From the IMG/VR virus record IMGVR_UViG_2534681774_000024: 8,799 nucleotides of DNA, one strand, 5' to 3'. Shown one piece after another: positions 1 to 8,799 of the stretch (positions within the stretch are counted from its first letter, which is position 1; each line of letters begins with the position of its first letter). A program made the translations under genes and the position numbers. This DNA is from a virus. Taxonomy: Duplodnaviria > Heunggongvirae > Uroviricota > Caudoviricetes. The notes below the pieces were generated by a model. It ran no database searches. It had not been told where the DNA came from and saw only the letters and a program-made list of their open reading frames with translations.

Positions 1-666
1 CGGAAAGGTATCCATCCACAAAATCATCTGGCCGGTTACAGCGGTGTGCTTCAGGCCGATGCTTACGGTGGTTACCGGGTGTTATACGAATCCGGCAGAA
101 TAACGGAAGCCGCGTGTATGGCTCATGCCCGGAGAAAAATCCACGATGTGCATGCAAGAGTGCCCACCGACATCACCACGGAAGCCCTGCAGCGTATCGG
201 TGAACTGTATGCCATAGAGGCAGAAGTCCGGGGATGTACAGCAGAACAGCGTCTGGCGGCAAGAAAAGCCAGAGCTGCGCCACTGATGCAGTCACTGTAT
301 GACTGGATACAGACTCAGATGAAAACACTGTCGCGTCACTCGGATACGGCAAAAGCGTTCGCATACCTGCTGAAACAGTGGGATGGCCTGAACGTGTACT
401 GCAGTAATGGCTGGGTGGAAATCGACAACAACATCGCAGAGAACGCCTTACGGGGAGTGGCCGTAGGCCGGAAAAACTGGCTGTTCGCGGGTTCCGACAG
501 CGGTGGCGAACATGCGGCGGTGTTGTACTCGCTGATCGGCACATGCCGTCTGAACAATGTGGAACCAGAAAAATGGCTGCGTTACGTCATTGAGCATATC
601 CAGGATTGGCCGGCAAACCGGGTACGCGATCTGTTGCCCTGGAAAGTTGATCTGACCTCTCAGTAA
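1..666 (+). CDS. IS66-family transposase, C-terminal part (5' end lies upstream of the window)
   Basis: The frame is open from nt 1; the ORF track starts at the first Met (nt 46). The translation carries the region [29 protein letters not shown] (DNN-x-AEN-type motif) that I recall as characteristic of IS66/ISEc8-type transposases. The stop lies 30 bp before an IS66-type terminal repeat. Confidence 0.85.
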
Positions 667-696
667 ATATCAATACGGTTCTGGCGAGCCGCTTAC
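1..696 (+). mobile_element. IS66-family insertion sequence, right-hand portion with terminal inverted repeat at about 677-696; the element continues upstream of the window
   Basis: The reverse complement of 677-696 is GTAAGCGGCTCGCCAGAACC, so the outward-facing terminus begins GTAAGCG, as I recall for IS66-family ends. The integrase-like minus-strand translation stops making sense exactly at nt 696/697. The 8 bp at 697-704 (GTATATTT) are a candidate target-site duplication, but the left end is not in the window. Confidence 0.75.
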
Positions 697-1552
697 GTAT
701 ATTTCCTCCATTAATCATAAAGTGAGCAGCAAAGGTATGGCGTAGAACATGTACAGCCTGTCCTTTTGGTAGGTCTGGCTTAACACTGCGAAGCACCTTG
801 CGATATTCCTCATAATTGACGTCAAACAAAAGGCCGGATTTCTTTGTTTTGATCTCACTAACAACTTCATCAGAGACAGGAATAATTCGAACTTTTCCGT
901 TTTTAGTTTTGTTAAACGTCACGCGATTATTGATGATGTGTTCCGCGCGCAGATTTTTCGCTTCTCCCCATCTCGCCCCAGTACTGAGACAAAGTAGCGT
1001 AATCCGCCGGGCATCACCGCTTACTGCATCCAGTAATTTGGCGATTTCTTCCGTGGTGAGATACGTCATTTCGGGTGATTTTCGTTTCAAAGAGGGGAGG
1101 GCGCGGAGCGGATTTTCTCCGTGAAATTCCCCGGCATTTGCCAGGAGTGTAAACATTCCTCCGAGATCCGACTCATCACGCCGAACAGTAGACTCTTTTA
1201 CTCCCAAGGATAAACGGGAGCTTCGATAAGCGGCCATGAAACGAGCATTAATCTGGCTAACCCTTGGATCATTCATTTCTTTGATGATTTTTTTCAACCT
1301 GGTTAGAACGCCGTTAGCATATGGCTTATTGCGTCCACCCAATTCCCACCATAACGGAAGCAGATCTGAGAGATGACGTTGCTCTGTTGGCTTTTCAAGC
1401 CATTCCTTATCGTGCATGTGGCTGAGAACATAACGCTCAAAGGCCACTGCATCTGCCTTTTTCTTAAAAATCCGCTGAATCCGACGTCCACTTCGGCCAC
1501 GCGGTCTAACATCCACTTTATACCGTCCACCATCGAGCGCTTTAATTGCCAT
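697..1552 (-). pseudogene. int: P2-type tyrosine integrase, truncated at the C-terminus by the IS insertion (about 285 codons retained; catalytic Tyr region not present here)
   Basis: Part of minus-strand ORF 587-1585. Probable start is ATG 1550-1552 (MAIKALDGGRYKVDV...) with GGAGGG 7 nt upstream. It contains LCLSTGARWGEA and HVLRHTFAAHFMINGGNI, matching the P2 Int family as I recall it. After ...GGNI the reading frame continues into the IS terminal repeat ([11 protein letters not shown]... is translated IS sequence). Confidence 0.8.
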
Positions 1553-1618
1553 TGGCAAGCCCTCCGGTGAAACGAGGAAAGACATTTCCAGTTTGTAAAA
1601 CGTAAGAATAATAAAGGG

Positions 1619-1921
1619 TTAGCCAATTTTCCTTTCGGATGGGGGTAAGTCCGTTGGCTCTTGCCCATAGTGTGCGAGAGCCGGAGCTATCTGCCCGGAT
1701 TCAGGCGCAATTTTCCCAGTCATAAACCACAACGCATATTTCTCAAATCTGGGGTTGTTTAGTATTTGCTCAATTACTTCAGCATTAGGGATAGTTTTAC
1801 CGCTTTCATATCTCCACAGAGCATCACGGTTTAAACCAAGCATTTTTGCTGTATCCGGGAGGCTAGTAAGTCTCTCGCTTTCACGCATGATTTTTATGCG
1901 CTCTCCAATAGTCATACGCAT
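1619..1921 (-). CDS. C-type immunity repressor, XRE-like HTH, about 100 aa
   Basis: Minus-strand ORF 1619-1936. The ORF-track start at 1934-1936 is a TTG; the first ATG is 1919-1921 (MRMTIGERIKIMRESERL...) with GGAG 9 nt upstream. There is an HTH-like segment LPDTAKMLGLNRDALWRYESGK. Size, orientation and position (between int and the rightward early operon) match the P2 C repressor; the C-terminal ...IAPESGQIAPALAH... resembles what I recall of P2 C. Confidence 0.65.
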   Translation of the reverse strand: MRMTIGERIKIMRESERLTSLPDTAKMLGLNRDALWRYESGKTIPNAEVIEQILNNPRFEKYALWFMTGKIAPESGQIAPALAHYGQEPTDLPPSERKIG

Positions 1922-2016: not shown

Positions 2017-2343
2017 ATGAATGAAGAACTATTGAGGGCATTGTTTAAGATCCCAGACCCCATCACCGTCGATGAGTTTTCCCGCCGCACAGGTAAGACC
2101 GAATCAGCCGTAAGAAAGTTGGTAGAGCGTCGACTCATCCCTCTAACTACTGAGCGCGAGGTTTTAGGCGAGGAAGGGAGTTCGCGCCGTCTTCTCATCC
2201 TTTGGAATGAGTGGCTCGAAATGGTCTATGACGCAACGAAACAGCTTCCTCCTGAGCGTAAAGATTGGCGCAATCACTGGCTTAAGAAAGCCAAGAAGCT
2301 GGCGGAAGATTTGGGATTAGGCTTTCTTAATTTTGCTGCATGA
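2017..2343 (+). CDS. Cox-position small regulator / excisionase candidate (108 aa)
   Basis: ATG 2017 with AGGGAG 8 nt upstream; the upstream in-frame ATG at 1948 lacks an RBS and would fall inside the switch region. First rightward gene opposite the repressor, as cox is in P2. The basic helical segment DEFSRRTGKTESAVRKLVERRLIP is HTH-like. The sequence does not obviously match P2 Cox as I remember it, so the functional call is positional. Confidence 0.45.
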   Translation: MNEELLRALFKIPDPITVDEFSRRTGKTESAVRKLVERRLIPLTTEREVLGEEGSSRRLLILWNEWLEMVYDATKQLPPERKDWRNHWLKKAKKLAEDLGLGFLNFAA

Positions 2344-4665: not shown

Positions 4666-4793
4666 CACAAAAAAACCGCTTGCCATGCCGCAATCAGTCA
4701 GGTTACATTTCCGCTGCACCTCATAAAACGGGTGCCGGGTTTCGCAGCCTGCTGACTACAAGAGCGCACAACCGCGCCAGCGGTTTTTTTGTG
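4666..4793. repeat. Perfect 15-bp inverted repeat pair (CACAAAAAAACCGCT at 4666-4680; reverse complement at 4779-4793) bracketing 98 bp
   Basis: Read directly from the sequence. Each arm contains a run of seven A (or T) next to CCGCT/AGCGG. Confidence 0.7.
4770..4790 (+). terminator. Candidate intrinsic terminator: AACCGC-GCCA-GCGGTT hairpin running into T7
   Basis: A 6-bp stem (4770-4775 / 4780-4785) with a 4-nt loop, followed by a T-run through 4790. The stem is short, so this is tentative. It sits about 120 bp downstream of the stop of ORF 4348-4647. Confidence 0.35.
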
Positions 4794-4969
4794 CGTACTG
4801 TATTGCCACGTTTTTTTCGCGTCAGAATTATGGCGGGGCGTACGGGGCCGACTTCGGTCGGGCCGGGATCTCTTGTAGCCGGTACTGCGAACCTCGTACG
4901 TCTCGCCACCCACAGTTTCGCAGCTCTGGATGGTGAGTTTTCACAACTTACTACAAGAGGCCACATATC

Positions 4970-5644: not shown

Positions 5645-8468
5645 ATGACGGCAGAGTACATCAGGGACTGGCAACAACCGCGCCACGCAGTGGGACGTGA
5701 AGGAACGGGGATCCCCGTTCCTGAATCTGCGCTTTCTTCCTGGCTGGATGCCTACCGGGCAGAGAACGAGCGCCGCCAGGAAATGGCTGATGCGGCGTTC
5801 TCCGCCACGCCGCTGGGCAACCTGATTAATAAAAGCCTGGATGCACAGGAAAAACAGGACAAAACCATCACACTGGCAGGAGACGCCAGAAAACAGGCAC
5901 GCGGCGCGGTGGATGAAGCCATGGCCTCGCTGCGCCTGCTGCCGTCCTATCTGCGCGATCCGCTTATTCGCCACCTCTCCTTCCTGCGCAAAAAACAGGA
6001 AGTCGATCGCCGGAAAGGCAAAAAGAGCTGGCAGGCTGAACGCTACGCGCGCGGAACCCTGCGCAAAATATTCGAACGTCTGGACCGCACCGACCACCGC
6101 TGGCTGACACCGGGTTATCGCTCCCTTGCCGGACGCGAACGCCTGGATGATTTGCTTTACCTGCCGCAGCTCAACAAGCACCAGATACAGACGCTGGCCA
6201 CCATGACGGCGGCGATGTTCAGCAGCACCTTCGAAAAACTCTGCGATGGCTTTGGCGCGACTGATGGCGAACTGACCATGGATGTAACGCTGAAGGCGTA
6301 TCAGATGCTGGCCCGCATGGCGTTACACCTGCACGCCATGCCTCCACATTATGACGCACTGACAACAGACAAAGACCGGAGGAACGAACCGGACACGGAG
6401 CTGCTGCCGGGCGCAATCCTTCGCCTGACCTGTGCGGAATGGTGGAAACGCAAACTGTGGCTGTTACGTTGCGAGTGGAGAGAAGAACAACTCCGCGCCG
6501 CCTGTCTGGTTTCCAGAAAAACATCACCCTATCTGAGCCAGGACGCGTTAAGCGAGTTTCGCGCACAGCGCGAGAAAACACGCGATTTCCTGAAAAGTTT
6601 CATGCTGGAAAATGAAGACGGGTTCACGATTGATCTCGAGACAGTGTATTACGCGGGAGTAAGTAACCCGGTTCACCGTAAGGCAGAAATGATGGCCACC
6701 ATGAAGGGACTGGAACTTCTGGCCGAAGCCCCGTGGCGACAGAGCGGTGTTTCTGACTGTCACCTGCCCGTCAAAATACCACGCAACAACGGAGAACGGT
6801 CATCCGAACCCCAAATGGAACGGGGCCACCATGCGCGACTCCAGCGATTACCTGGTTAACACGTTTTTTGCGGCGGTCCGCAAAAAACTGAACCGCGACG
6901 GCCTGCGCTGGTATGGCATCCGCACGGTGGAGCCTCACCATGACGGAACCGTGCACTGGCATATGATGGTCTTTGCCCATCCGGAAGAAATCGACACCAT
7001 TGTGTCCCACACCCGCGATATTGCCATTCAGGAAGATCGTCACGAGCTGGGCGATGATATTACTCCGCGCTTTAAGGCGGAGTATGTAGACGGCTCAAAA
7101 GGCACGCCAACCAGCTACATCGCCACCTACATCGGAAAGAACCTGGACAGCCGCGCCGTGGATGGCATCGACCCGAAAACGGGCAAGCCACGCGTTGACC
7201 ACGAAACAGGAAAATCAATGGCCGAGAGCGTGGAGCGCGCCATCGGCTGGGCGCGCCTTCACCGGGTCCGCCAGTTCCAGTTCTTTGGCATTCCCTCCCG
7301 TCAGGTGTGGCGTGAACTCCGCCGCCTTGCCAGCCAGATGGCACGCAACCCGGAAGGCCCGCAACGGCTGAAGGATGACGCAATGGATGCGGTTCTTGCT
7401 GCCGCTGATGCCGGGTGTTTTGCCACCTACATTGAAAAACAGGGTGGCGTACTTGTTCCGCGCAAGGACTACCTGATTCGCACCGCCTACGACCTCGCAG
7501 ATGAGCTGAACGATTACGGCGAACAGAGTGTACAGATTTACGGGATCTGGTCGCCATTCATCGGGGAATCCTCCCGTGTGTGCACGCATCCGGATAACTG
7601 GAAGCTGGTAAGACGTAAACCGGAAGCGGAGGACAGCGCCCGCGAAAATGGTTTTGACCTTCAGGGCGGCCCTGCCGCCCCTTGGACTCGTGGCAATAAC
7701 TGTCCCCGTGTACAGGAAACGGACAACAACGGGACAGAACAGTCGGAAGAACGGCCAGCACCGTGGCCGCAGCTCCCTGACGGCGTTGAAGTGAACGAAT
7801 GGATGCGCTCACTGAAACGGCACGAACGCCGGGCGCTGATGCGTTCGCTTCGTGACAAACAGGCAAAAAACAGCAGTGATGAAATGCAGAGCTGGACACA
7901 GAGCCGCAAACAGCAGTGGCCTTTGCCTGATAACCACGAATTACTCGCTAAAGAATGGCGGAAGTCTGCTGAATCTCTCGGCCTGCATATCGGTGAACAA
8001 CAGATGCAGCACCTGTTACGGGGCGGCAGTCTGTACGTTGACGGCAGCATCATTGCACCGCAGGGATTTGAAATTGTACGCAAACCGGATACCCGCCCGG
8101 ACAGTCGAATCACGCAGCTCTGGCAGCGCCTGAGCCGTAATCATGGCGTAAGCAGCACGGAGATCCGCCATAACCCGGTCGCCAGCTATCTGGCACAGCT
8201 GGGGGCATCAGACCCTGAAGCCGCCGCACGCCTGGCATCCACACTTCAGCAGGACCAGAACACCATGAAAACACCCGTTACCGTGCTTTCTGACATGCTG
8301 CGCGCCATCCGCGACGCAGAGCACGCACAGAGAATCAGTGAAATCACTGAACGCGCCAGCCGCAAAGCAGACCTGCTGCGGGGTGGCCTGACCAGCGGAA
8401 ACAAAAAACAGACAGAAACGGGACTCACGAATCCCGTAAATGAGCAAAAAACGCGCAGCGATATATGA
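5645..8468 (+). pseudogene. A: P2 gene A-type rolling-circle replication initiator (HUH endonuclease), read in two frames with a frame change near 6729-6732
   Basis: ORF 5645-6859 (frame 2) and ORF 6747-8468 (frame 0) overlap by 113 nt. The downstream part carries FLTVTCPS, the HUH motif in GTVHWHMMVF, and a paired-tyrosine motif TSYIATYIGKN, matching what I recall of the P2 A / Phage_GPA family. Frame 0 is open from 6705. Removing one C from the CCCC run at 6729-6732 gives a continuous reading ...[27 protein letters not shown]... The 6747 start in the ORF track is a GTG inside this reading. Confidence 0.75.
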
Positions 8469-8513: not shown

Positions 8514-8544
8514 CGATTAATTAATCAACATAAGGAAAAGCGAC

Positions 8545-8799
8545 ATGAAAATTTGTATCGACGACGGCTCCACCAACATCAAGCTGGCATGGACTGAGAA
8601 CGGCGAATGCCGCAACGCCATCAGCCCGAACAGCTTCAAGTCGGAATGGTCTGCGCCGTTCGGTGGCTCGCAGCCTGCGAACTACATGCTTGATGGCGTG
8701 CGCTATGGTTTTGATCCGGTCAGCGATCGCTTTGTCCAGACGACCGACACGCAATACCAGTACAGCGATGTGAATATAATCGCCATTCACCACGCGCTG
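8545..8799 (+). CDS. parM: ParM/StbA-like actin-family ATPase, N-terminal 85 codons (3' end beyond the window)
   Basis: ATG 8545 with AAGGAAAA about 8 nt upstream; open to the window edge and in frame. The translation MKICIDDGSTNIKLAW...ISPNSFKSEW...YQYSDVNIIAIHHAL closely parallels the N-terminus of plasmid R1 ParM as I recall it (MLVFIDDGSTNIKLQW...WQYSDVNVVAVHHAL). It is not in the ORF track because it has no stop within the window. Confidence 0.8.
   Translation, partial: MKICIDDGSTNIKLAWTENGECRNAISPNSFKSEWSAPFGGSQPANYMLDGVRYGFDPVSDRFVQTTDTQYQYSDVNIIAIHHAL

Follow-up and report, generated by a model that had tools for sequence, protein, structure and literature searches.

An IS679 insertion splits the integrase gene of a P2-like prophage in Escherichia coli and probably fixes the prophage in the chromosome

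Can a P2-like prophage whose integrase gene runs into an insertion sequence still leave the chromosome by means of its own recombinase? This question is raised by a stretch of 8,799 nucleotides from a virus of the class Caudoviricetes (IMG/VR identifier IMGVR_UViG_2534681774_000024; hereafter, the window), for which the original prediction, made from the sequence of the window, was that an IS66-family element interrupts the integrase gene (int) and that the prophage is probably unable to excise on its own. Since the window starts within the element, which begins outside its left edge, the far side of the insertion was taken from related sequences. The comparisons described below indicate that IS679 has inserted into int, that the catalytic tyrosine is lost from the product and that one host genome, FDAARGOS_1059, holds no second integrase gene recognizable by DNA similarity, and the P2-like prophage is thus very probably fixed in the chromosome.

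The features of the window that bear on this question are collected in Table 1. At its left end, the translation of positions 1-666 matches PF03050 of Pfam over profile positions 114-283 of 284 (E-value of 9e-59) and the IS66 C-terminal element PF13817 (E-value of 1.3e-16), and both the list of ORFs and the raw sequence place its stop codon at 664-666. The corresponding protein (RefSeq identifier WP_000381456.1) is labeled 'IS66-like element IS679 family transposase'. The last base of the element is at position 696, where ...GCCGCTTAC is the reverse complement of a GTAAGCG terminus. Directly upstream of int, the HTH repressor gene stands where C is found in the P2 layout; the IS leaves it untouched. 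The product of the first early gene is tentatively Cox-like and would partner the integrase in excision, given that phrog_272 is described as 'Cox-like excisionase and repressor' and that a relative's annotation list contains a 'Cox family DNA-binding protein'. An Rfam scan of positions 1-1552 did not find any RNA elements.

Table 1. Features of the left-hand part of the window (coordinates are window positions; L001 is the related locus that carries the whole insertion)
Feature	Position	Strand	Evidence
Right-hand 696 bp of the 2704-bp IS679 (IS66 family)	1..696	+	L001 9001-9696, 100% identical
TnpC (IS679 DDE transposase; complete protein 523 aa), C-terminal 221 codons	1..666	+	PF03050, PF13817, RefSeq WP_000381456.1
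IS679 right terminal inverted repeat, ...CGCTTAC at 696	672..696	.	End-to-end alignment 17/25
8-bp target-site duplication GTATATTT, right-hand copy	697..704	.	Twin at L001 6985-6992 abuts the left IS end
P2-type integrase 5' fragment, codons 1-285 plus one base	697..1552	-	PF24624, truncated PF00589
Chimeric ORF of 321 aa (285 integrase and 36 IS-end residues)	587..1552	-	RefSeq WP_024182697.1 'phage integrase'
HTH repressor gene, directly upstream of int, same strand	1619..1921	-	HTH_31, HTH_19, HTH_3; RefSeq WP_001242988.1
First early gene, divergent, candidate Cox-like excisionase/repressor	2017..2343	+	phrog_272, weak, E-value of 2e-4

When window positions 1-1700 were compared by megablast with 5426 complete E. 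coli genomes, just two proved to contain the entire IS-int junction with 100% identity, viz., O111:H2 strain 12A (NZ_CP077479.1) and FDAARGOS_1059 (NZ_CP066032.1), and among the matches listed the integrase is uninterrupted in all remaining records. The full 8799-base window differs from these two genomes by one or three bases only. In both genomes the RefSeq features follow in the order pheA, pheL, a 141-nt int remnant named 'phage integrase, incomplete, missing N-terminus', tnpA, tnpB, the IS679 transposase, the 321-aa integrase, the HTH repressor and the early genes. The insert, which carries tnpA, tnpB and tnpC, has a length of 2704 bp (L001 6993-9696), and its ends (left GTAAGCGCATC..., right ...GAGCCGCTTAC) are imperfect inverted repeats that match at 17 of 25 positions, including the terminal GTAAGCG. 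Read across the insertion, the order is ...GCGTAA-GTATATTT-IS679(GTAAGCGCATC ... GAGCCGCTTAC)-GTATATTT-CCTCCATT..., such that a perfect 8-bp duplication, one copy on each side of the IS, replaces the single copy of GTATATTT in the uninterrupted gene of strain 504838 (L002). An 8-bp target duplication is the norm for the IS66 family.

The Pfam family matches of the three encoded proteins are all full-length. Outside the window, TnpA (L001 7078-7728) matches HTH_Tnp_1 with an E-value of 7.5e-17 and TnpB (L001 7728-8075) matches TnpB_IS66 (PF05717) with an E-value of 2.8e-40, while the complete TnpC of 523 aa covers PF03050 from position 1 to 283 of 284 and additionally matches PF13005, PF13007 and PF13817, in keeping with a DDE transposase of the IS66 type that has zf-IS66, LZ and C-terminal elements. 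Thus, the element is apparently an intact and full-length IS679. Several plasmids of E. coli and Shigella carry a complete and 100% identical copy of this 2704-bp unit, and because such discrete copies recur on plasmids, these boundaries can be taken as those of the true mobile unit. The assignment to IS679 is likewise indirectly supported by these plasmid copies and by the RefSeq family name. IS679 is said to have been first described by Han and colleagues in 2001, on plasmid pB171 of the EPEC O111 strain B171. In each of the two insertion carriers, the query of positions 1-1700 matches 15-16 places, mostly IS copies, and the 12A/FDAARGOS_1059 lineage therefore has an expanded IS679 population. 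A three-ORF layout of tnpA, tnpB and transposase is classic for the IS66 family, and a GTAAGCG terminus has been reported for ISPsk01 and other IS66-family relatives (PMC12888890). In its three genes with a DDE TnpC, its imperfect inverted repeats starting from GTAAGCG and its 8-bp duplication, the insert therefore resembles other members of the IS679/IS66 family; it does not differ from them structurally, and only its target, codon 285/286 of a prophage integrase, is particular.

Turning to the target, the integrase gene is read from a minus-strand ORF at 587-1585, with an annotated start at 1552. Its product matches Int_N (PF24624) with an E-value of 5e-23, and PF00589 with an E-value of 1.7e-9 over profile positions 2-148 of 172 only, as against 2-169 of 172 for the intact allele. 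The protein is native through I285 (...AHFMINGGNI); below base 696 the ORF reads the IS inverted repeat (...HVLRHTFAAHFMINGGNI, followed by a tail translated from ...GTAAGCGGCTCGCCAGAACCG...), which adds 36 foreign, IS-derived residues before the stop at 587. The native stretch at 705-1552 is 100% identical to intact alleles across 848 bp. The integrase matches PDB identifier 1aih, the HP1 integrase, with an E-value of 9e-43, and its identity to the integrases of P2-like phages, for example L-413C and P2_AC1, is 52-54%, with 64% at most to any phage record. It also matches PDB identifier 5c6k, labeled only 'Integrase', with an E-value of 1.6e-96; we take this entry and 5dor to be the P2 integrase structure of Skaar et al. 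(2015). These results bear out the original prediction that the frame is of P2 type up to ...FMINGGNI and then runs straight into the terminal repeat of an IS66-family element, the refinement being one of positions only (IS at 1-696, duplication at 697-704 and int fragment at 697-1552).

The IntP2 subgroup is the one typified by the integrases of P2 and HP1, and a Tyr nucleophile together with the RKHRH pentad constitutes the catalytic set conserved in all tyrosine recombinases (PMC8138268). The intact allele (L002) encodes a protein of 329 aa (RefSeq identifier WP_000974887.1), in which Int_N and PF00589 are present with the full catalytic set of R194, H268, R271, H294 and Y303, as in the IntP2 members from P2 and HP1 (PDB identifiers 5c6k, 5dor and 1aih). 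The window copy has the IntP2 N-terminal region and its closest likeness is to the P2/HP1 integrases; it retains the arm- and core-binding regions along with R194, H268 and R271, whereas it ceases to be an integrase after residue 285 and its catalytic domain lacks H294 and Y303. The insertion point is after codon 285, and the 44 residues missing from the product (286-329; LTLQRIMGHATIQQTMTYAHLAPDFLQDAISLNPLKGGIHISST) are encoded 2.7 kb away by displaced codons (LTLQRIMGHATIQQTMTYAHL...) that adjoin attL and pheL. H294, the second histidine of the catalytic set, and Y303, the tyrosine that serves as nucleophile, are both encoded in this displaced segment. When the lost segment, LTLQRIMGHATIQQTMTYAHLAPDF..., is aligned with the integrase of 5c6k/5dor, the HP1 integrase, XerA and XerD, it falls on their GH...Y-x-H box, wherein MGH(294)...TMTY(303)AH corresponds to GH...MVYAH in 5c6k/5dor, GH...MRYAH in HP1 (1aih) and GH...QIYTH in XerA (5hxy) and XerD (5dcf). 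By this alignment, the displaced motif comprises the box II histidine and the tyrosine nucleophile. Since H294 and Y303 are missing and the PF00589 match stops at 148/172, the window copy is to be classed as a truncated pseudogene of a family member and not as a functional member. From the established enzymology of these proteins, the 321-aa product would be unable to form the phosphotyrosine link and hence is predicted to be inactive. The segment expected to contain the catalytic tyrosine is thus absent from this side of the IS, as had been anticipated.

The insertion could be reversed in silico by deleting IS679 and one copy of GTATATTT from L001 and comparing the resulting CDS with intact alleles. 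The reconstructed int is 990 nt long and shows 0/990 mismatches to the alleles of strain 504838 (L002) and of plasmid pCREC455-3 (L006), and 1/990 to that of strain MFDS1022581 (L005). The perfect duplication, the absence of mismatches over the 990 nt of int and the 100% identity of the IS to plasmid copies together suggest that the insertion of IS679 into int is a recent event. The spacer that separates the stop codon of int from the att core, in the P' arm region, contains a G-run (L001 6820-6830, L002 3842-3850) of six G in FDAARGOS_1059 and 12A and of five G in 504838 and pCREC455-3, a small length polymorphism.

The prophage that carries the split gene is about 38 kb long in strain 12A, IS included, and lies between raiA and pheL. 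Its annotated genes (L004) encode gpA, portal, terminase, capsid, lysis, baseplate, tail-fibre, tail sheath and tube proteins and ogr, along with cargo genes for Hok/Gef, a TM2 protein, and Com with a DNA methyltransferase. The gene set is that of a P2-type phage, with gpA, Q/P, O/N/M, a contractile tail, ogr, and int-C with divergent early genes at one end; within the window, Pfam identifies Phage_GPA (PF05840). A 27-bp att core, ACAAAAAACGCGCCCGAAGG[T/C]GCGTTG, occurs at each end of the prophage and coincides in part with a hairpin resembling the raiA terminator. The att site of this integrase, in the raiA terminator region, appears to have a core of its own. An empty attB, assembled in silico by joining the outer flanks through one core, is uninterrupted in 5273 of the 5426 genomes, with 100% identity among the matches listed. 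The displaced int fragment is situated about 90 bp from attL and thus precisely at the place expected for the 3' end of int. Reading across the whole IS in the two complete genomes, which had been proposed as a check, therefore revealed the displaced 3' fragment, the 8-bp duplication and the att site; the alternative envisaged, a much shorter insert with the C-terminus continuing in frame beyond it, does not apply, the insert being 2704 bp long and the C-terminus not being in frame.

Several other features of the prophage and its relatives merit description. The tail genes (sheath, tube, E/E', tape measure and U; L004 29508-36350) are on the strand opposite to the D-like gene and ogr, and the D-like CDS is only 267 aa long with a 93-nt partial CDS upstream (L004, and also L005 and L006). 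We considered the opposite-strand position of the FI-U block and the short D-like CDS as further lesions and rejected them, as the same layout is present in the intact-int relatives L005 and L006; both are thus a lineage trait and not damage. A gene for ParM, an actin-type plasmid segregation protein, begins just after gpA and runs off the window (8544-8799, plus strand; L001 17544-18819), and the product of the next gene is annotated as a 'plasmid partitioning/stability family protein', which may be a partner of the ParR type. It is noteworthy, because unusual, for an integrating P2-like phage to have a partition system. Rfam matches above the gathering score were obtained for the Hfq-binding sRNA isrK (4716-4790, plus strand; 66.7 bits) and C4 antisense RNA (4826-4913, plus strand; 81.1 bits), which are adjacent to each other in a 320-bp gap devoid of RefSeq annotation, upstream of two small hypothetical genes and gpA. 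The same P2-like phage is also integrated in the 129-kb plasmid pCREC455-3 (NZ_CP183151.1; L006 1-34400), where its int allele equals the IS-less reconstruction. This plasmid also carries baseplate, tail-fibre and transglycosylase genes, and the phage is bounded on the right by an att core with 2/27 mismatches, ACAAAAAACGCGCCCGAAGGAGCATTG. The pCREC455-3 copy looks like an integration at a secondary site, and the presence of the identical intact allele in a plasmid-integrated copy points to activity of the uninterrupted allele, now or in the recent past.

Based on these observations, we propose that a full-length IS679 moved by transposition into a P2-like prophage residing between raiA and pheL, where it entered the integrase gene at codon 285/286 and generated the usual 8-bp target duplication, in which N284 and I285 now fall. 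The integrase gene has been left in two pieces, viz., the promoter-proximal 285 codons, fused to 36 codons of the IS, and a remnant of 46 codons (residues 284-329), lacking a promoter or start codon of its own, 2.7 kb off next to attL. A product without H294 and Y303 could not be expected to cleave and rejoin DNA at attL and attR, and, unless a similar integrase acted from elsewhere, the prophage would be inherited as a fixed chromosomal island. In FDAARGOS_1059, a DNA-level blastn search in its 'distant' setting, which reaches about 65-70% identity or better, found a single int-matching place and no second copy, and therefore no close paralogue to act in trans in that genome. The originally predicted inability of the prophage to excise by its own integrase, which follows from the need for the tyrosine nucleophile, is in all likelihood correct. 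Related evidence comes from E. coli O157:H7 Sakai, in which the lambdoid prophages Sp3, Sp11 and Sp12 have a disrupted int, were predicted to be non-excisable and do not belong to the set of nine prophages from which circular forms were obtained; other defects in that strain were complemented between prophages (PMC2669165).

The fixation of the prophage by the IS has to be weighed against readings in which the IS is real and excision persists, through a tyrosine recombinase acting in trans or through precise loss of the IS. Complementation among the O157 Sakai prophages is documented for replication and packaging (PMC2669165), the strains studied here carry several prophages, and in the complete genomes no damage is apparent in the att sites, the Cox-like gene or other parts of the prophage. 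However, the Sakai prophages with disrupted int yielded no circular forms (PMC2669165), a second DNA-similar int locus was not detected by blastn in FDAARGOS_1059, the nearest integrases among the phage records share only 52-64% identity with this one, and precise IS excision is rare. Moreover, P2-family integrases are att-specific. We consider continued excision very unlikely, even if it is the least improbable of the alternatives; what doubt remains is that a divergent integrase with overlapping specificity may act in trans, or that rare precise loss of the IS may restore int. Somewhat lower in our ranking is the reading in which the prophage was dead beforehand, the IS having struck a neutral target as a symptom of decay and not the cause of immobility. 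It draws on a difference within the window, where CCCC is present at 6728-6731 against CCC in both insertion-carrying complete genomes, the extra C causing a +1 frameshift that splits the 940-aa replication endonuclease gpA into the overlapping ORFs 5645-6859 and 6747-8468. Yet gpA is an uninterrupted 940-aa protein in both IS-carrying genomes, and the frameshift is therefore later than the IS, or else a homopolymer error; the other prophage genes are annotated as intact, save for the short partial CDS shared with intact-int relatives, and the int fragments are free of any decay (0/990). Prior death of the prophage is hence highly improbable. For the window's own source the extra C could represent a genuine further lesion or, alternatively, an error in sequencing the homopolymer, and there the IS may be neither the sole nor the first inactivating event. 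As for gpA itself, the Pfam GPA domain extends to about residue 136 of the ORF at 6747-8468, and the remaining ~430 residues of the 940-aa protein did not match any Pfam family; the protein thus appears to carry a long uncharacterised C-terminal extension past the GPA domain.

A different kind of proposal concerns what the split gene and the trapped prophage might do. The 321-aa chimera keeps the arm- and core-binding regions and so could bind att DNA, and it would be co-transcribed with the repressor; putatively, it may then hinder the integration or excision of incoming related phages. Alternatively, with replication, packaging and lysis genes intact and excision blocked, induction could lead to in-situ replication that mobilizes the pheA-tyrA-aroF or raiA-bamD regions. 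We regard such consequences as remote, less probable again than prior death of the prophage, and the perfect conservation of the int fragments is fully explained by the recency of the insertion. The least probable of all is that the junction is an assembly artefact in which an IS679 end was wrongly joined to int. IS679 is indeed a multicopy repeat of about 15 copies per genome, and the one homopolymer base by which the window differs from both complete genomes implies that the source assembly may contain errors. Nevertheless, two independently assembled complete genomes hold both junctions, each with a perfect 8-bp duplication that a false join would not produce, the displaced 3' fragment of int sits exactly on the far side of the IS, and removal of the IS restores int with no mismatches. 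Misassembly is accordingly rejected as extremely improbable, on the agreement of two genomes, the duplication at both junctions and the exact reconstruction. Immobilization of the prophage by the IS679 insertion thus remains the preferred reading.

The anatomy of the locus shows, as far as these comparisons go, no departure from known IS66-family or IntP2 behaviour, and the event is an ordinary and well-documented kind of prophage decay; RefSeq already has annotations for the IS and for both pieces of int. Like Sp3, Sp11 and Sp12 of Sakai, this is an otherwise recognisable prophage that is 'grounded' by a disrupted int. Those prophages, however, are lambdoid and have several other defects, whereas the present one is P2-like and, in the complete genomes, shows no obvious lesion other than the IS, so the grounding looks very recent. 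For prophage-prediction tools, the locus illustrates that an ORF of almost full length (321 of 329 aa) that is named 'phage integrase' can lack all catalytic activity. The insertion may also serve as a lineage marker, being present in 2/5426 complete E. coli genomes. Beyond annotation its importance is small: it provides a clean, datable case of prophage grounding by a single IS hit, with a perfect duplication and undecayed int fragments, and the prophage is best treated as fixed in the O111:H2 12A/FDAARGOS_1059 lineage.
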